The notes under the pieces are model-generated. The model was not told the DNA's origin. It searched no databases and saw only the letters and a list, made by a program, of their open reading frames with translations. The position numbers and the translations under genes are program-made. From Alphaproteobacteria bacterium (lineage in GTDB: Bacteria; Pseudomonadota; Alphaproteobacteria; Acetobacterales; Acetobacteraceae): a stretch of DNA of 64,000 bases. This document shows, piece after piece, positions 545-49,785 of the stretch; position 1 is the first letter of the stretch; the number at the start of each line of letters is the position of its first letter. Location: the NCBI GenBank assembly GCA_026400815.1, contig JAPLOI010000006.1, forward strand, positions 38,133 to 102,132. The letters run 5' to 3'.

Positions 545-602
545 GGTCAGAACGTCTTTTTGCTTCTTTTTCTTCAGAAAAAGAAGGCGCTTGCTTGCTT
601 CC
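545..602. repeat. Solo right arm of the AT-rich palindromic repeat (family A)
   Basis: GGTCAGAACGTCTTTTTGCTTCTTTTTCTTCAGAAAAAGAAGGCGCTTGCTTGCTTCC is nearly identical to the right arms at 13575-13624 and 37711-37763. It sits in the divergent intergenic region between the oxidoreductase and rph. Confidence 0.6.
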
Positions 603-12648: not shown

Positions 12649-13491
12649 ATGGACGCGCAGCAGATGATGGTGATGCCGGTTTCCGGCGCCGTGGGGGCCG
12701 AGGTGCGGGGCATCGATATCTCCCGCCCGCTGCCGGCGGTAACGGTGGCGACCCTGCGCGCGGCGCTGGGGGAGCACGGGGTGCTGTTCTTCCGCGACCA
12801 GGCGCTGACCGAGGCGCAGCACATCGCCTTTGCCGAGCAGTTCGCCAAGATCAACATCAACCGCTTCTTCCGCGCAGTGGAGGGCTGGCCGCAGATCGCC
12901 GAGGTGCGCAAGGAGCCGGAGCAGACCAAGAATATCGGCGGCGGCTGGCATACCGACCACAGCTACGACCAGATCCCGGCCCTCGGCTCCCTGCTCTATG
13001 CCCGCGAAGTGCCGCCCTCCGGCGGTGATACGATCTTCGCCAGCATGTTCGCCGCCTACGACGCGCTGTCGGACGGGCTGAAGCGCACGCTGGAAGGGCT
13101 GCGCGCCGTCCATTCCAGCCGCCACGTGTTCGGCACCCAGGCCAAGCGCGGCGATGACCTGAAGGACCGGCTGGGCAACGCCGAAGCCGCCACGCAGGAC
13201 GCGGTGCACCCGATGGTGATCACCCACCCGATCAGCGGCAAGAAGGCGCTGTACGTGAACCGCGGCTTCACCACCCATATCGAGGGCTGGACGGTGGAAG
13301 AGTCCAAGCCGCTGCTGGAATACCTCTACCAGCATGGGGCGCGGCCGGAGTTCAGCTGCCGGTTCAACTGGGCGCCGGGCTCGATGGCGTTCTGGGACAA
13401 CCGGGCGACGTGGCACCTGGCGGTGAACGATTATCAGGGGCATCGGCGGTTGATGCACCGGATTACGCTGGAAGGTGTGGCGATTTCTTAA
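12649..13491 (+). CDS. tauD: TauD/TfdA family Fe(II)/2-oxoglutarate dioxygenase (taurine dioxygenase-like)
   Basis: WHTDHSYDQIPALGSLLYAREVPPSGGDTIFASM and ATWHLAVNDY match the family. The protein is 280 aa. Confidence 0.8.
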   Translation: MDAQQMMVMPVSGAVGAEVRGIDISRPLPAVTVATLRAALGEHGVLFFRDQALTEAQHIAFAEQFAKININRFFRAVEGWPQIAEVRKEPEQTKNIGGGWHTDHSYDQIPALGSLLYAREVPPSGGDTIFASMFAAYDALSDGLKRTLEGLRAVHSSRHVFGTQAKRGDDLKDRLGNAEAATQDAVHPMVITHPISGKKALYVNRGFTTHIEGWTVEESKPLLEYLYQHGARPEFSCRFNWAPGSMAFWDNRATWHLAVNDYQGHRRLMHRITLEGVAIS

Positions 13492-13493
13492 GG

Positions 13494-13624
13494 AAGCAAG
13501 CGCGTTCTTTTTTGAAAAAAAGAACCAAAAAACTTTTGTGACTTTGCGCCGAGGCTAGCCCCGGCGCAAAGTCAGGAAGTCTTTTTTGCTTCTTTTTTCT
13601 TCAGAAAAAAGAAGACTCTTGCTT
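13494..13624. repeat. Full-length AT-rich palindromic MITE-like element (family A)
   Basis: The left arm is AAGCAAGCGCGTTCTTTTTTGAAAAAAAGAACCAAAAAACTTTT. The central hairpin is GACTTTGCGCCG...CGGCGCAAAGTC. The right arm is the inverse, AAGTCTTTTTTGCTTCTTTTTTCTTCAGAAAAAAGAAGACTCTTGCTT. The element fills the entire gap between the convergent tauD and sseA stop codons. Confidence 0.75.
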
Positions 13625-14492
13625 ATCCTGCCTCCATCGGCAGCGACGGGTCCTTCACCCACTCACTGAGCGAGGCATCGTAGAGCTTCACGTCCTTGTG
13701 CCCGAGCATCGTTAGCACCAGCGCGTCCGCGCTCGCAGCGATGCCGCCGCCGCAATAGGTGATCACGCTGCGGTCCATCGCGCCCACGGCTTCGAACTTC
13801 GCACGCAGTTCCTCGGCCGGCAGGAATTCGTTGGTGGCGGGATCCAGCAGGTTGGTCGCGGCGACGTTGACGCTGCCAGCGATGCGGCCGGGGCGGCCGT
13901 AATGCACGCCGCCGGTGCCGGTGTGCTGTTCCGGGCGGAGGGCGTTGATGGTGCAGATGCTGCCGCTGTTGATGGCGGCGAGCACCTCGTTCTTGTCGGC
14001 CATCAGCGGGCGCAGGGCGCGGGCGGTGAAGTGGGCCGGTGTGCGGGGCGTGCCGGCCCCGGTTTCCACCGGGCGCTGCTCGGCGGACCATTTCTGGAAG
14101 CCGCCATCGAGCACGGCGGCATTGTCGTGGCCGAACACGCGCAGCAGCCACCAGACGCGGCTGGCCCACCACACATTGGCGGTGCTGTAGAGGATCACGC
14201 GCGTGGCATCGCCCACGCCCAGACGGGCCATGCTGGCGGCGAAGCGCTGGGCGCTGGGCAGCATGAAGCGGAATTCATGGCCGGGCTCGGACAGGTCGGC
14301 CTGGAGGTCCACGAACTGGGCGCCGGGGATGTGGCCCTGTTCGAAATCGGCGCGGCCGGGCTTCGCCGTGTAGCCGGCGCCTGGCTCGGGGATCAGGTGG
14401 GTGGTGGCATCCAGCACGACCACGCCGGGATCATCCAGGTGCGCGGCGAGCCAGGCGGTGTCGACGAGATATTCGGGATGGGCGAAGGCCAT
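13623..14492 (-). CDS. sseA: Sulfurtransferase (tandem rhodanese; 3-mercaptopyruvate/thiosulfate sulfurtransferase)
   Basis: The protein has two rhodanese domains and the active-site loop ITYCGGGIAAS. It is 289 aa. Confidence 0.85.
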   Translation of the reverse strand: MAFAHPEYLVDTAWLAAHLDDPGVVVLDATTHLIPEPGAGYTAKPGRADFEQGHIPGAQFVDLQADLSEPGHEFRFMLPSAQRFAASMARLGVGDATRVILYSTANVWWASRVWWLLRVFGHDNAAVLDGGFQKWSAEQRPVETGAGTPRTPAHFTARALRPLMADKNEVLAAINSGSICTINALRPEQHTGTGGVHYGRPGRIAGSVNVAATNLLDPATNEFLPAEELRAKFEAVGAMDRSVITYCGGGIAASADALVLTMLGHKDVKLYDASLSEWVKDPSLPMEAG

Positions 14493-36126: not shown

Positions 36127-37625
<1,499 letters not shown>

Positions 37626-37763
37626 GAAGCAAGCATGTTCTTTTTTGAAAAAAAGAACCAAAAAACTTTTATCCGCTTGCGCCGGTCCCTCCACGGAACC
37701 TCGGCACCAGGTCAGAAAAGTCTTTTTGCTTCTTTTTCTTCAGAAAAAGAAGAGTCTTCCTTC
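37626..37763. repeat. Full-length AT-rich palindromic MITE-like element (family A)
   Basis: GGAAGCAAGCATGTTCTTTTTTGAAAAAAAGAACCAAAAAACTTTT ... AAAGTCTTTTTGCTTCTTTTTCTTCAGAAAAAGAAGAGTCTTCC starts 1 nt after the M32 stop and ends 2 nt before the next ATG. Confidence 0.75.
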
Positions 37764-37765
37764 CT

Positions 37766-38824
37766 ATGACCGCCCGCCACCGCGCCCAGGCCTTCTGCAC
37801 CCGCTTCGGCCTGGCCACCCCCATCCTCATGGCCCCCATGGCCGGCGCCTGCCCGCCCGCCCTCGCCGCTGCCGTCGCCAACGCGGGCGGCATGGGCGCG
37901 ATGGGCGCCCTCACCTCCGACCCCGCCGCCATCGCCGCCTGGGCCGCCACCTTCCGCGCCCACTCCAACGGTGCCTTCCAGATCAACCTCTGGATCCCCG
38001 ACGCCCCAACCACCCGCGACCCCGCCGCCGAAGCCCGGGTCCGCGCCCTGCTCTCGCGCTTCGGCCCGGAGCCCCCGCCCGAAGCCGGGGATACCCCCCT
38101 GCAGGATTTCCAGGCCCAGCTCGCCGCCCTCCTCGCCGCCCGCCCGCAGGCTGTCTCCTCCATCATGGGCCTCTACCCGCCGGAAGCGGTGGCGGAGATG
38201 AAGCGCCGGGGCATTGCCTGGTTCGCCTGCGCCACCACCCTGGCCGAAGCCCGCGCCGCCGAGGCCGCGGGAGCCGACGCCATCGTCGCCCAGGGCGTTG
38301 AAGCCGGCGGCCATCGCGGCAGCTTCACCCCGGAAGCCGCAGATACCCAGCTCGTCGGCCTCATGGCCCTCCTGCCGCGCCTCGCGGACCACCTCTCGGT
38401 CCCCATCATCGCCACCGGTGGCATCGCGGATGCCCGCACCATCGCTGCCGCCCTCACGCTGGGCGCCAGCGCCGTGCAGATCGGCACCGCCCTGCTGCGC
38501 ACCCCGGAAGCCGCCACCCACCCGGCCTGGACCGCGGCGCTGGAGAACCTGGAACCCGAAGCCACCATGCCCACGCGCTGGTTCTCCGGCCGCCTCGGCC
38601 GCGCGGTCGCCACCACCTACGTCCGCGCAACCTCGGGCCACCCCGCCGCCCCCTACCCGGTGCAACGCGGCCTCACCACCCCCATGCGAGACGCCGCCGC
38701 GAAGGCCAACAACGCCCAGGCCATGCAGCTCTGGGCCGGCCAATCCGCCGCCCTTGCTCGCCCAGCCCCCGCCGCCGACCTCATCCGCGGCTGGTGGGCC
38801 GAAGCCCAAACCCTCCTGCCCTGA
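37766..38824 (+). CDS. Nitronate monooxygenase (NMO / 2-nitropropane dioxygenase family)
   Basis: [31 protein letters not shown] and [12 protein letters not shown] match the family. Confidence 0.85.
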
Positions 38825-45000: not shown

Positions 45001-46284
45001 ATGGAACTGCAATCCGGCTTCGGCAACGAATTCGCCACCGAGGCCCTCCCCGGCACGCTCCCGCAAGGCCGCAACTCCCCCCAACGCCCGGCCCACGGCC
45101 TCTATGCGGAGCAATTCTCCGCCACCCCCTTCACCGTCCCCCGCAGCGAAGCCCGCCGCACCTGGCTCTACCGCATCCGCCCCTCCGCCAATCACCCGCC
45201 CTACGCCCCCATCGCCCACCCCACCCTGGCCACCCCGCTCACCCCCCCGAACCCCAACCGCCTGCGCTGGAGCCCCCTCCCGCTCCCCGAAGCCCCCACC
45301 GATTTCCTCGCCGGCCTCACCACCATGTTCGCAACCGCGGAGGGCGCCCACGACCACGGCGTCTCCATCCACCTCTACGCCGCCAACCGCTCCATGGAGC
45401 GCATCTTCTGGAACGCGGATGGCGAGTTCCTCCTCGTCCCCGAACACGGCGCCCTGCGCCTCGAAACCGAACTCGGCCGCCTCACCATCGCCCCCGGCGA
45501 GATCGCCATCCTCCCCCGCGGCATCCGCTTCCGCGTCATCCTGCTGAACCCCACCGCCCGCGGCTACATCGCCGAAAACCACGGCGCCCCCCTGCGCCTG
45601 CCCGATCTCGGCCCCATCGGCGCCAACGGCCTCGCCAACCCGCGCGACTTCCTCACCCCCACCGCCTGGTTCGAAGACCGCTCTGAGCCCACCGAGATCG
45701 TCCAGAAATACCTCGGCACCCTCTGGACCACGACGCTGGATCACTCCCCGCTCGATGTCGTCGCCTGGCACGGCAACTGCGCCCCCTGCAAATACGACCT
45801 TTCCACCTTCAACACGATCGGCACGATCAGCTTCGATCACCCGGATCCGTCGATCTTCACCGTCCTCACCTCCCCCACCGAAACGCCAGGCCGCGCCAAC
45901 CTCGATTTCGTCATCTTCCCACCGCGCTGGCTGGTGGCCGAGAACACGTTCCGCCCCCCCTGGTTCCACCGCAACGTCATGAACGAATGCATGGGCCTCA
46001 TCACCGGCGTCTACGACGGCAAGGCCGAAGGCTTCGCCCCCGGCGGCTTCAGCCTCCACCCCATGATGTCCGCCCATGGCCCCGATCTCGCCACCACCCA
46101 ACGCGCCCAAGCCGCCGAGCTCACCCCCCACAAGATCGACGGCACCCTCGCCTTCATGTTCGAAACCTCCGGCGCCCTCCGCCCCACGGCCCACGCCATG
46201 GCCTCCCCCCACCGCCAGCCTGCCTACGACCAGGTCTGGACCGGCCTCGACAGGCGCTTCACCCCCAAGGGGATCCAGCCATGA
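45001..46284 (+). CDS. hmgA: Homogentisate 1,2-dioxygenase
   Basis: [24 protein letters not shown] and [16 protein letters not shown] match HmgA. The protein is 427 aa. Confidence 0.95.
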
Positions 46285-47561
46285 ACACCCACGATCCCGC
46301 CGCCCGCTCCTGGCTCCCCAGCGCCAACGGCCACGCCGACTTCCCGCTGCAGAACCTCCCCCTCGGCATCTTCTCCACCGCAGACGGCAATAAGCGCCCC
46401 GGCACCGCCATCGGTGACTCCATCCTCGATCTCAAGGCCGCCCTCGCAGCCCGCCTCCTCACCGGCGAAGCCGCGAACGCCATCGAAGCCTGCGCCGAAA
46501 CCCTCAACCCCCTCTTCGCCCTCGGCGCCCCCGCCCGCCAGGCCCTGCGCACCCAACTCTTCGCCTTGCTGCACGAATCCAGCCCCGCCCGCCCCGAACT
46601 CCTCTACCCCGCCAGCGCCTGCACCCTCCACGTCCCGGCGCAGATCGGCGACTACACGGATTTCTACGCCGGCATCCACCACGCCAGGAACGGCGGCCTG
46701 CTCTTCCGGCCAGACAACCCCCTGATGCCAAACTACAAATACGTCCCCGTCGCCTATCACGGCCGCGCCTCCTCCGTGCGCCCCTCGCCCTCCGCGCTGC
46801 GCCGCCCGCAAGGCCAGCGCAAACTCCCGGAAGAACAAGCCCCCACCTACGGCCCCTGCCGCAACCTCGATTACGAGCTCGAAATGGGCATCTGGATCGG
46901 CCCCGGCAACCAACCCGGCACCCCCATCCCCATCGCCAAAGCCGCCGACCACATCGCCGGCTTCTGCCTCCTCAACGACTGGTCGGCCCGCGACATCCAG
47001 TCCTGGGAATCCCAACCCCTCGGCCCCTTCCTGGCCAAGAATTTCCAAACCTCCATCTCCCCCTGGGTCATCACCCCCGAAGCCCTCGCCCCCTTCAGAA
47101 GCGCCCAACCCCCGCGCCCCAACGGCGACCCCGCCCCACTCCCCCACCTCTTCGACACCGCCGACCAGTCAAACGGCGCCCTCGACCTCACCCTCGAAGT
47201 CACCATCCACACCGCCCAAATGCGCGCCAACAACCAACCCCCCGCCCGCCTCTCCATCGGCAACGCACTGAACCTCTACTGGACCCCCGCCCAAATGGTC
47301 GCCCACCACGCCAGCAACGGCTGCGACCTCCACCCCGGCGACCTCTTCGGCACCGGAACCATCTCCAGCCCCGAACCCACCGGCTGGGGCGCCCTGATGG
47401 AAATCACCCGCGGCGGCCGCGAACCCCTCACCCTGCCCAACGGCGAAACCCGCAAATTCCTCGAAGACGGCGACGAAATCACCCTCCACGCCCGCGCCCA
47501 CCGCCCCGGCCACGCCAGCATCGGCTTCGGCCCTTGCCGCGGGCTGGTGCTGCCATCATGA
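46281..47561 (+). CDS. fahA: Fumarylacetoacetase
   Basis: [32 protein letters not shown] and [10 protein letters not shown] are present. The ATG overlaps the hmgA stop (ATGA). Confidence 0.95.
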
Positions 47562-47682
47562 AAGAAAGCAAGCACGTTCTTTTCTGAAGAAAAGAACCAA
47601 AAGACTTTCACTCATTTGCCAATGGCGCCCGTTGTGCAAAACAACCAAACACCCCGTCATTGCGAACGAAGTGAAGCAAGCC
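47511..47682 (+). repeat. Direct repeat DR1: the last 17 codons of fahA (stop included) plus a family-A-variant element
   Basis: DR1 aligns colinearly with 48741-48912 at a constant offset of 1230 bp. Confidence 0.8.
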
Positions 47683-47811
47683 AGCGCTTTGTTCTCCGGC
47701 GGCCGTCCGCGCGTGTGACTCCCCAGGCATCCCAATGAAAACGGCCCGCCCCTGGTGCAAGGGCGGGCCGCAATCCCGGTCGCAGCCCCCGCAAGCAGGG
47801 GCATCCAAGCG

Positions 47812-48558
47812 TCAGCGGCGGCGTCTCGCCGCGCCCAGCCCAACCAACCCCGCCGCCAGCAGAACCAGGGAGGCTGGCTCCGGCGTCGATGTGGGCAGCG
47901 GATCGCCGCCGATGGTGTTGTATCGCAGGTTGTCGAACCCAATACCCGCACCGTCGTTGTTGGTGATCGTGATGCCAGCGATATCGGCAACGTTGCCGTC
48001 GCGCGTGAACGCATATGCCTGGTCAGACAACCCCGAGAGGTTGATGCTGTCGATCAGCGACCCATCGATCGCGTAGAAATTGACCTCGGCCGTGCCGCCA
48101 CCGCCGCCGACCAGTTCGAAACCGAATTGCGATTGCGGCAGGCCAAACCGCAGCGCAATCGCTCCTTCACCAATGGCGTCGAAATCCGGGAACCCCGTCG
48201 GACCCAGCCCGGTCAGCACCTGGGTGCTGAAGGTGAAGATGTTGAGGTTCTGGTCGGTCGCGCCAGTGAGCAAAGTGAGCCCGGCCGTGGGCGCGCCAGT
48301 CAACGTGTCGAAGGTTCCGCTGGGAACCAGGGTTTGGCCCTGGAAACGCTCCCCGAAAGCCACGTTGCCCGATACGAACAGCGCATTGTAGTTCGTGCCC
48401 GGCGCAGCGCCCCCGGCAACGTCATCGAACGTCACGAGCCCGGTGGCACTCAGGCTTCCTGGCGAGACCTGCGTCACCTGCGCCATCGCCGGGCTTGCCA
48501 TCGCCACGGCAAGGCCCCCGAGCAACGCTCCCGCGAACATTCCACCAATCCCTGTCAT
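47812..48558 (-). CDS. PEP-CTERM sorting-domain secreted protein
   Basis: A signal peptide is present (MTGIGGMFAGALLGGLAVAMASPAMAQ). The C-terminus is PEPASLVLLAAGLVGLGAARRRR, that is PEP, a TM segment and an Arg cluster. I chose the ATG at 48558. Confidence 0.85.
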   Translation of the reverse strand: MTGIGGMFAGALLGGLAVAMASPAMAQVTQVSPGSLSATGLVTFDDVAGGAAPGTNYNALFVSGNVAFGERFQGQTLVPSGTFDTLTGAPTAGLTLLTGATDQNLNIFTFSTQVLTGLGPTGFPDFDAIGEGAIALRFGLPQSQFGFELVGGGGGTAEVNFYAIDGSLIDSINLSGLSDQAYAFTRDGNVADIAGITITNNDGAGIGFDNLRYNTIGGDPLPTSTPEPASLVLLAAGLVGLGAARRRR

Positions 48559-48700
48559 CGTAATGCTCCATGTATGCGTCAATTCATATGCAAGAATAAT
48601 ACCATACATAAATATCTCGCGAATATAATGACTTCCCAGACGGTATAACGTTCCGAAAAGCAAATATGTAAAAAAATCCGACATGACTGGCGGTTGCAAT
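48559..48700 (-). promoter_or_regulatory. Strikingly AT-rich upstream region of the PEP-CTERM gene
   Basis: This ~140-bp stretch is rich in A and T (for example CATACATAAATATCTCGCGAATATAATGA and ATATGTAAAAAAATCC) in an otherwise GC-rich genome. It is the only such block in the window. Confidence 0.35.
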
Positions 48701-48740
48701 GGGTTGTCCCGTCGGCACCCTCGTCCTGCGCATTCCCCAC

Positions 48741-48791
48741 CACGCCAGTATCGGCTTCGGCCCCTGCCGCGGGCTCGTCCTGCCATCATGA
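48741..48791 (+). pseudogene. Orphan fahA 3'-end fragment (16 codons plus stop)
   Basis: The fragment encodes [16 protein letters not shown], identical to the fahA C-terminus. It has four nucleotide differences, all synonymous. No fahA body lies upstream. Confidence 0.7.
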
Positions 48792-48912
48792 ATGGAAGCA
48801 AGCGCGTTCTTTTCTGAAGAAAAGAACCAAAAGACTTTCATCCCTTTGCCAATGGCACCCGCCGGGTGGACCATCCAAACACCTCGTCATTGCGAACGAA
48901 GTGAAGCAATCC
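48741..48912 (+). repeat. Direct repeat DR2 (partner of 47511-47682)
   Basis: The order of segments matches DR1: fahA tail, AAGCAAGC..GTTCTTTTCTGAAGAAAAGAACCAAAAGACTTTCA, then CGTCATTGCGAACGAAGTGAAGCAA. Confidence 0.8.
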
Positions 48913-49237
48913 AGGCCTTCGTCCCCACAACAGTCCGCATCGGATCAAGAGAACGCGCCCGCCACATGCTCAATGGCCCTGCCGTGGCAGCGTTACGTCA
49001 TGCCCACCCCGTACCGGTTGGAACGTCATCGATACCACGGGCATCTCTGCGACACGTAGCCCGCATCTTGATGCGGGCCGGCACAGTCCCATGCGCGCCA
49101 GAGAACGCCACAAGCCCCTTCTCCGTGCCCTCTGTGGACCTCCGTGCTCTCTGTGTCCCCTTCCTTCCCACCCACCCAACCCCACCTAAAAAATTTCCTA
49201 TGAACGGCAACAAGTCTCTTCCCTTCGCCGCTCAATC

Positions 49238-49624
49238 ATGCAAACTAACCGTATGTCATCACACCCCCTCTCCCTCGGCGACCAATTCGCCACGCTGCGC
49301 GCCAGCCTCCAGGCGGAATCCGCCTTCAATCGCCCGCACGCCCAAGCTGCGCTCAGCGCCGTGATGACTGCCTTGCTCATTCGCCTGCTCACGGAACTGG
49401 AAAACCTCTTCCGCCGCTGGCAGTCCCACCCCACCACCTATCCCGCCACCACCCGCGCCACCCGCATCGCCGGCCTGGCCTTCATCCCGCGCGCCCTCCG
49501 CCAGCCCCCGCTGCCCACCTGGCTCATCCGCCTGGCACCCGCATTGGGCCTGCGCCCGGCCCCCGCCCCGCGCCCGCAATCCCGCGCCACCCGCGCGCAC
49601 CCGATCCGCAACGCCCCGCACTGA
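49238..49624 (+). CDS. Hypothetical protein (128 aa)
   Basis: This is the only sizeable ORF in the gap. The N-terminal half looks helical (ALSAVMTALLIRLLTELENLFRRWQS) and the C-terminal half is Pro/Arg/Ala-rich. I recognise no family. Confidence 0.35.
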   Translation: MQTNRMSSHPLSLGDQFATLRASLQAESAFNRPHAQAALSAVMTALLIRLLTELENLFRRWQSHPTTYPATTRATRIAGLAFIPRALRQPPLPTWLIRLAPALGLRPAPAPRPQSRATRAHPIRNAPH

Positions 49625-49785
49625 TCCCAGCGCACAAGCCGCCGCCACCCTCCACATTTTTTCTCAACCCAAAGGGGCAGGGACCCCAATCACGCCCTAA
49701 ACATTCCGAAAACAAAACAAATACCGCCCCTTGCCACCACTCCAGAACCCGGGAACCCTCCAGCCCAGACCCAGGAAGCTTCCCA

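Follow-up and report, generated by a model that had tools for sequence, protein, structure and literature searches.

How does a single gene come to stand between two copies of the end of its neighbor? The question is raised by a 64-kb stretch of an Acetobacteraceae contig (JAPLOI010000006.1, assembly GCA_026400815.1), here called the window, in which the gene for a 248-residue PEP-CTERM protein lies downstream of fahA, the fumarylacetoacetase gene, and is bracketed by two direct repeats. Each repeat consists of the last 51 nt of fahA (the tail) and a piece, here called E, derived from a miniature inverted-repeat transposable element (MITE). We infer that the repeats, instead of being attachment sites, were left behind when two versions of the locus recombined by ordinary and partly illegitimate means. 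Positions are those of the window throughout; related loci, obtained from a FahA scan of species-representative genomes and from protein look-ups, are coded L003, L083-L085 and L087-L095.

The direct repeats and what they enclose

A repeat search finds a 188-nt direct repeat at 47505-47692 and 48735-48922, with a spacing of 1230 and 86% identity, and in a BLASTN search against the window copy 2 is matched by copy 1 with an E-value of 7.6e-61. Counted without gaps at the offset of 1230, identity is 47/51 in the fahA tail (47511-47561), 46/49 in the left part of E (47562-47610), 31/44 in its middle and 29/32 in its right part. The similarity is gone before 47505 and past ~47700, and the two copies have an identical core of 35 nt in common. 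The 51-nt tail is the genuine C-terminus of fahA.

An earlier sequence-only reading of this DNA had described repeats at the 1230-bp offset that duplicate the end of fahA with four synonymous differences, and both searches confirm them. It had also stated that only a PEP-CTERM gene and its AT-rich upstream region lie between the repeats. This is correct, with a terminator to be added: the enclosed DNA is one complete PEP-CTERM transcription unit (terminator, 248-residue open reading frame (ORF) and AT-rich upstream region) and nothing else. Two Logan contigs, one from run SRR20698643 and one from ERR15302219, match window 47581-48834 and 47650-48823, respectively, at 100% identity, and both cross the copy-2 junction. 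Because these independent contigs span the junction at full identity, the two-repeat arrangement is not an assembly artefact.

An illegitimate junction and two apparently chimeric copies

The left end of copy 2 can be located with the help of L084. This contig aligns with window 47734-48746, covering the terminator region, gene and promoter, and then runs into unrelated DNA. The homology ends with ...GCACCCTCGTCCTGCGC..CCCCACCAC(G/A)CC, and past 48746 the window reads AGTATCGGCTTC..., which is fahA from codon 410. The CCACGCC at 48740-48746 (CCACACC in L084, 6/7) recurs at fahA 47510-47516. By this comparison the join that opens copy 2 is illegitimate, formed over 4-7 nt of microhomology, and the event was therefore not purely homologous. 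The sequence-only reading had proposed homologous recombination at the 3' end of fahA; that proposal is upheld on one side, where the copies look chimeric near the stop codon, and fails on the other, at the start of copy 2.

To the right of the tails, the two copies have different affinities. Over 90 nt of the rest of E, E2 and L003 are separated by 5 positions, E1 and E2 by 23. No E copy is more divergent than E1 in its right part, at 17-24/90 from every relative (L087 and L083 are nearest, at 17). The tails show the opposite trend: tail 1 is nearest to L087, with 2/51 differences, and tail 2 to L094, with 3/51. E2 runs on into flank F and a small ORF (to ~49720), where three-taxon counts group the window with L003 at 102 sites, the two alternative groupings having 16 and 13; L087 stands at 82.6% against the window over 900 nt, the L087/L088 allele being 17-18% different. 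The nearest relatives of E1 and of the PEP-CTERM gene are 9-19% away, where the genome background is 5-6%. The copies thus look reciprocally chimeric: an ordinary tail is joined to a divergent, cassette-linked E1, and a variant tail to a resident-type E2 and flank. The pattern would fit a crossover no more than 3 nt past the fahA stop codon; it would equally fit one copy purely of donor and one purely of recipient origin, as expected of a linear fragment entering by homology-facilitated illegitimate recombination (HFIR).

Flank F and the small ORF, which is 123-128 codons long, occur as two haplotypes 17-18% apart in genomes that are otherwise ~94-95% identical (window 48923-49720; L087:9415-10100; L003:1372-2200). 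The small ORF downstream of E2 has no Pfam or NCBIfam match.

Origin of the second fahA tail

Tails 1 and 2 differ in four codons (AGC/AGT, CCT/CCC, CTG/CTC and GTG/GTC), and all four differences are synonymous third-base changes. The FahA proteins of the relatives are 92-95% identical to that of the window; an exact look-up of the window protein gave no record. The synonymous share of the single-base changes possible in the tail is 41/144 (0.285), and p is 0.0066 if all four changes fell on a dead copy. Outgroups place no more than two of the four on tail 2, CTC and GTC, and CCT on the live copy, which moves p to ~0.02-0.08.

The bases that mark tail 2 (CCC, CTC, GTC and CCA) are found in intact fahA alleles, CTC and GTC in L089 and CCC, GTC and CCA in L094. 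Together, the synonymous pattern and the match to functional alleles favor the derivation of tail 2 from a working fahA allele. The sequence-only reading had reached the same view from the synonymous differences; the view is strengthened by the intact L089 and L094 alleles, and the argument from synonymy has become weaker. Tail 2 also includes the ...CC/ATCATGA end that is specific to fahA alleles carrying E; therefore tail 2 and E2 are a joint copy of a fahA-E locus. We also considered E1 and E2 as independent insertions of the element, with the tail added by gene conversion. This is rejected because tail 2 has the fahA/E end ...CCATCATGA, which is absent from fahA alleles without E.

Empty and occupied forms of the locus

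If the bracketed unit is an insertion, related genomes should have an empty site, as the sequence-only reading had predicted. Three of them do: L003, L087 and L088, in genomes ~94% identical to the window, read fahA, a single tail and E, and then the right flank of the window from 48.9 kb on. L003 is the Acetobacteraceae metagenome-assembled genome JAIXTK010000082 (~93-95% nucleotide identity), and L087 is GCA_947460455.1. One could imagine that a two-repeat ancestor gave rise to L003 and to L087 by separate pop-out deletions with different crossover points. For L087 this is rejected because its F and small ORF are the other, 17-18% divergent haplotype; for L003 it could still hold.

Homologs of the PEP-CTERM protein are encoded in L083 (94% identical), L084 (88%) and L085 (80%). 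L083 has E1, the terminator and the gene, with no copy 2, and then unrelated upstream DNA. In L085, a more distant relative, hmgA and fahA converge with the PEP-CTERM gene across a 134-nt spacer that contains neither E nor repeats. These two loci contradict a newly captured, free-standing cassette, which had been one of the original suggestions, and the 248-residue gene is, to judge from them, a long-standing occupant of the slot in part of the clade.

In other relatives, the slot downstream of fahA holds a 562-residue PEP-CTERM protein (L090:9409-11097), a 1397-residue protein (L091:2447-6640), an IS3-like transposase remnant (L092:4150-4353, …WRHDYNTVRPHSKLGGKTPAE…) or another gene (L089:2369-2611). 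The L090 protein has no homology to the PEP-CTERM protein of the window outside the sorting motif. The slot is hypervariable, and the region downstream of fahA can be regarded as a variable surface-protein slot in this Acetobacteraceae lineage.

Search for mobility genes

The sequence-only reading had noted no integrase, transposase or tRNA nearby and no exosortase gene in the window, and our scans agree. Among ~35 window ORFs scanned with Pfam there is no integrase, transposase or exosortase; these ORFs belong to core metabolism (rph, hemN-like, MCP, pepN, tauD, argF, argD, the cox operon, M32 peptidase, acs and others). These three kinds of gene are likewise absent from the syntenic stretch of L087 as annotated with Pfam. 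ARAGORN finds no tRNA in the 64 kb (0 genes), an Rfam scan gave no match, and neither did plasmid searches by DNA and by protein.

Several known classes of mobile DNA can be compared with these results. An integron cassette is not indicated, as there is no integrase family in the window or the L087 stretch and the unit has a promoter-like region and a terminator. A transposon or MITE does not match bounding repeats that are direct, ~190 nt long, 86% identical and equipped with 51 nt of fahA. Nor does the window, having no tRNA and no integrase, resemble a tRNA-linked island.

Proposed recombination between two alleles and other explanations

We lean towards inter-allelic recombination in which an empty-site chromosome of haplotype 2 gained the module. 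The occupied allele would have read fahA, tail, E1, terminator, PEP-CTERM gene, promoter and segment J (the native sequence upstream of the gene), and the empty allele fahA, tail, E2, F and small ORF, as L003 does today. An illegitimate join at CCACGCC would have linked J to codon 410 of fahA, and a second, homologous exchange would have taken place inside the fahA 3' end and E. Two routes, both documented elsewhere, lead to exactly such a product. In one, the fragment from codon 410 to J would be circularized by illegitimate end-joining and would then enter by a single crossover in the ~190-bp tail and E homology of an empty-site chromosome. In the other, a linear fragment would enter by HFIR anchored in fahA. 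Both routes would require host recombination functions only, and because in both of them each tail descends from a functional fahA allele, purely synonymous differences between the tails would follow. Loss of the module through recombination between the repeats is also possible, since they share the identical 35-nt core.

A number of observations weigh against this reconstruction. Only two changes can be assigned to tail 2 with confidence, which makes the synonymous-only pattern a borderline one (p ~0.08), and pervasive recombination blurs any inference from 51 nt. Sliding divergence against L003 reveals no clearly foreign tract in the 3' end of fahA. The L003 tail differs from tail 2 at 8/51, and L003 is for that reason not a simple parent or pop-out product. 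A donor contig with fahA-E1-gene-J-Y in one piece was not recovered, the L083 and L084 contigs being too short. The PEP-CTERM gene adjoins fahA in L085 and L083, so its presence is possibly ancestral and the empty sites are possibly losses; its atypical base composition, described below, is common to all its homologs and could reflect constraint instead of recent arrival. What the sequences show directly are the repeats, the junction, the empty sites, the affinities of the alleles and the lack of mobility genes; the order and the direction of events are deduced, gain being the more probable direction.

The same junction could have arisen within one chromosome, by microhomology-mediated tandem duplication or template-switch repair of the tail and E (or of a 1.23-kb unit), with no second allele at the start and with the second unit later diverging, undergoing gene conversion or being replaced in part. 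Tandem duplications classically leave a new b/a junction at a short microhomology, the copies differ at only 4/51 in the tails and 3/49 in the left part of E, and the G-to-C changes at third positions on a C-rich strand could come from mutation bias. We nevertheless regard such a local origin as unlikely. The rest of E differs at 23/90 between the copies and at only 5/90 between E2 and L003, so the copies predate the divergence of these genomes or arose separately; no remnant of a second copy of the gene is seen; the four tail differences are without exception synonymous and correspond to alleles of intact genes; and at least one further replacement event is required. The direction of transfer could also be reversed, with a vertically inherited gene beside fahA and DNA from an empty strain (fahA tail, E2, F and small ORF) replacing the upstream region of that gene. 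The right-hand exchange would then be homologous and the left-hand one illegitimate at CCACGCC, tail 2 being the left end of the imported fragment. The positions of the gene in L085 (convergent to fahA) and L083 (with E1) speak for this order, as does the E2-F-ORF block, a distinct haplotype common to the window and L003; a single linear HFIR event suffices, and tail 2 still comes from a functional allele. We think it less likely still than a local origin: E1 and the gene diverge from all relatives more than the surrounding genome does, the gene is without the local strand skew, which would be easier to understand if the gene, and not the flank, had arrived, and the right-hand crossover cannot be located.

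A dedicated mobile element (an integron-like cassette, a MITE-flanked composite transposon or a site-specific island with E as attachment site) is suggested by the derivation of E from a dispersed palindromic element, by the unrelated PEP-CTERM gene in the same slot of L090 and by the IS3-like remnant downstream of fahA in L092. Given that the 64 kb hold no integrase, transposase or tRNA, that the repeats are 86% identical direct copies with host coding sequence and not inverted ends with a short target duplication, that the right repeat begins at the microhomology junction and not at an element end, that the module has its own promoter and terminator, and that the other element copies are without cargo and plasmid matches are lacking, we consider this very improbable. 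More improbable again is an assembly chimera of two co-occurring strain haplotypes. Occupied-like and empty-like alleles are indeed both present in related samples, but the junction shares only 7 nt, far below the k-mer length of any assembler, and the Logan contigs of two runs cross it without a mismatch. A broader reading goes beyond the single event: the fahA 3' end, with its stop-supplying MITE-derived element, might be a recurrent landing pad for self-contained, sigma-54-driven PEP-CTERM single-gene modules that are exchanged between strains by host recombination alone. The proposition is doubtful but compatible with three observations: L090 has its unrelated 562-residue PEP-CTERM gene in the same slot, occupied, empty and re-occupied forms coexist among 91-95% identical genomes, and all PEP-CTERM genes in the slot are without local strand skew. 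If true, it would amount to recombinase-free, cassette-like variation of exosortase-sorted surface proteins.

Comparison with known systems

Recombination between two alleles, as favored here, has mechanistic precedents. In E. coli conjugation, 56/60 such integrants were single crossovers of circularized fragments, with 109-950 bp of the homologous locus duplicated (PMC3240628). HFIR (de Vries & Wackernagel 2002, Prudhomme et al. 2002 and Meier & Wackernagel 2003, as cited in PMC5361080) has been proposed to leave displaced 3' gene ends in type VI secretion system (T6SS) and rhs loci (PMC5361080). The fahA locus resembles these cases in that one exchange would lie in a homologous anchor (the fahA 3' end and E) and the other at an illegitimate microhomology junction, with no dedicated recombinase and with a few hundred bp of the homologous locus duplicated on both sides of the insert, comparable to the 109-950 bp in PMC3240628. 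It differs from them in that it is deduced from natural sequence variation and not from an experiment and in that donor and recipient would be alleles of one locus and not foreign DNA.

A second likeness is with C-terminal displacement in the effector-immunity loci of the rhs, contact-dependent inhibition (CDI) and T6SS type (PMC5361080; Jackson et al. 2009, cited there), where an incoming module brings the 3' end of the conserved upstream gene and the resident 3' end is pushed downstream as an orphan. At fahA the orphan would be tail 2, with synonymous differences only. In contrast to those systems, fahA is a housekeeping catabolic enzyme, both tails encode the same peptide and nothing in fahA is diversified; the cargo is an unrelated, convergently transcribed gene, and there is one orphan instead of an array. 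Integron cassettes are also small single-gene units with presence/absence polymorphism at a fixed site and an imperfect palindromic element adjacent. Unlike them, the fahA locus lacks intI and attI, its unit does not end in an attC-type site, the PEP-CTERM unit has its own promoter, and the flanking repeats hold host coding sequence.

The event is thus of a known kind and reveals no new mechanism. The locus is a clear case, found in nature, in which a whole accessory gene unit came into or went out of a core chromosomal site without mobile-element machinery. Its trace, the orphan gene tail together with the microhomology junction, is legible in the sequence itself. Direct repeats that contain the 3' end of a gene are not necessarily att sites; they can also be marks of recombination between alleles.

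Features of the locus

Table 1. Annotated features between hmgA and the small ORF, in window coordinates
Feature	Position	Strand	Evidence or detail
hmgA (homogentisate 1,2-dioxygenase), upstream partner of fahA	45001..46284	+	Pfam HgmA_N (E = 9e-114), HgmA_C (E = 4e-72)
fahA (fumarylacetoacetase), intact, 426 aa	46281..47561	+	Pfam FAA_hydrolase_N, FAA_hydrolase
Direct repeat copy 1: real fahA tail (47511-47561) and E1 (47562-~47700)	47510..47700	+	
Perfect 22-nt palindrome GTTCTTTTCTGAAGAAAAGAAC, left terminal module of the dispersed MITE-like element	47576..47597		repeat search
Intrinsic terminator of the PEP-CTERM gene	47741..47771	-	14-bp stem, 11 GC pairs, then TTTCATT
PEP-CTERM gene, 248 aa, C-terminus PEPASLVLLAAGLVGLGAARRRR	47812..48558	-	
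AT-rich regulatory region with enhancer-like TTTACA motif ~115 nt upstream of ATG	48559..48690	-	minimum GC 0.32
Sigma-54-type -24/-12 element TGGTATTATTCTTGCA	48589..48604	-	31-46 nt upstream of ATG
Segment J, native upstream sequence of the PEP-CTERM gene	48691..48746		L084 homology up to 48746
Illegitimate junction CCACGCC	48740..48746		three-way comparison of L084, window J and window fahA
Direct repeat copy 2: orphan fahA tail (to 48791, stop codon included) and E2	48747..48930	+	
Flank F and small ORF (49253-49624)	48931..49720	+	with E2, haplotype 2, as in L003

The PEP-CTERM gene and its regulatory region

The sorting domain, with its PEP motif, hydrophobic helix and basic cluster, occupies residues 224-248 of the protein and is recognized by PF07589 (25.3 bits, cutoff 20.7) and TIGR02595 (22.1 bits, cutoff 16). 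By inspection only, the N-terminus (MTGIGGMFAGALLGGLAVAMASPAMA/QV) resembles a signal peptide, with a hydrophobic core and an AxA site. The protein stays below the cutoff of every named NCBIfam PEP-CTERM subfamily; it has a weak full-length resemblance to floc PepA, whose model NF033554 (cutoff 80) gives residues 10-248 a score of 25 bits. Homologs of similar length (P0004-P0120) retain 50-63% identity across distant phyla; their source names include Microcystis, Accumulibacter and Candidatus Desantisbacteria, and most lie on contigs of 1-5 kb. Scanned against metagenomes, the protein returned only relatives at no more than 57% identity, which is uninformative for the fahA locus.

The noncoding parts of the unit are partly conserved as well. 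L085 has a hairpin equivalent to the terminator. The GG-N10-GC of the sigma-54-type element is kept at the same distance in L083 and L084 and is found at -74 in L085 (TGGCGCGGTTATTGCA), and TTTACA or TTACA is conserved in all three. The window contains 26 matches to GG-N10-GC, against 32 expected; because a single match is not above chance, the weight of the element rests on its position and conservation. GG-N10-GC and TTTACA are, respectively, motif 2 and motif 1 of Haft et al. 2006 (PMC1569441), and both also match the RpoN-dependent pepA (PMC9850573). With its C-terminal PEP-CTERM domain, large AT-rich upstream region, the two motifs and a stem-loop terminator, the unit is a canonical one, like the proteobacterial PrsR/sigma-54 PEP-CTERM single-gene operons (PMC1569441; pepA of Aquincola, PMC9850573), and its gene may depend on sigma-54 and an exosortase. 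A sigma-70 promoter scan gave no match. Since the junction at 48746 is upstream of both motifs, the bracketed 1.05 kb, which is present in some strains and not in others, is a complete expression unit.

The upstream region had been called the only AT-rich block in the window. It is the most AT-rich one (48521-48710, minimum GC 0.32), but there are four other blocks below 45% GC, which are copies of the dispersed palindromic element.

Element E and its dispersed relatives

Past the fahA stop codon, E consists of a left terminal module (AAGCAAGC.CGTTCTTTTCTGAAGAAAAGAACCAAAAGACTTT) and then ~90 nt ending in CGTCATTGCGAACGAAGTGAAGCAATCCAG. Each repeat copy holds only the left half of the MITE. Four further copies of the element in the window, at 13490, 37624, 41429 and 550-600 on the minus strand, match positions 58-115 of the repeat only. 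They contain no fahA sequence and no cargo. The 51-nt tail is therefore not part of the dispersed element; had it been, by its own account, the sequence-only reading would have failed.

The dispersed element is ~135 nt long and MITE-like, with long terminal inverted repeats and a palindrome in each. Its sites in the window are 13490-13625, 37624-37766, 41429-~41520, ~550-600(-), 47562-47610 and 48792-48840. It starts 0-3 nt past the stop codons of a tauD-like gene (TAA, 13489-13491), the M32 peptidase gene (TAG, 37623-37625) and fahA (TGA, 47559-47561). No Rfam family corresponds to it, and a metagenome DNA pattern search across E gave 0 matches.

With E, the encoded FahA ends in LPS; without E, it ends in LPAA, LPAVPTA or IPARTV. 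Because the ends differ in this way, insertion of E seems to have replaced the last fahA codons and supplied the stop.

Two contigs from Logan, L094 (1545-1575) and L095 (1545-1572), have identical fahA genes and differ only in a hairpin downstream of the fahA-linked element, whose loop is inverted (CCTCGGTCAGGAAGACCGAGG and CCTCGGTCTTCCTGACCGAGG). The difference may be an assembly-graph effect at the palindrome or a real loop inversion. Another motif, of the type CTCCGTGCCCTC(C/T)GTGG, recurs upstream of the small ORF in the otherwise unrelated sequence of several relatives (window 49115-49155; reverse-complemented L083 ~1195-1235 and L084 ~1125-1164), and may be another small dispersed repeat.

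Base composition and strand skew

The third codon positions of fahA are strongly skewed (C3 0.76, G3 0.12, skew3 -0.72). The PEP-CTERM gene is a local exception, with a skew3 of ~0 and a T3 of 0.14, and so are its homologs in L083-L085; all PEP-CTERM genes found in the slot downstream of fahA are without the local strand skew. This hints that they have not been long in the local strand context and have a history different from that of their neighbors.

Over the window as a whole, the third-position GC skew of the plus strand is extreme and independent of gene orientation. It runs from +0.2 to +0.5 in 1-16 kb and from -0.3 to -0.74 in 26-54 kb, and is positive again past ~55 kb, with switches of polarity near 17-25 kb and 54-55 kb. 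About 32 kb separate the two switches, which lie in a core chromosomal region (cox operon, argF/argD, rph), and the right-hand one is kept in L087; an inversion or an unusual replication architecture could have produced them.

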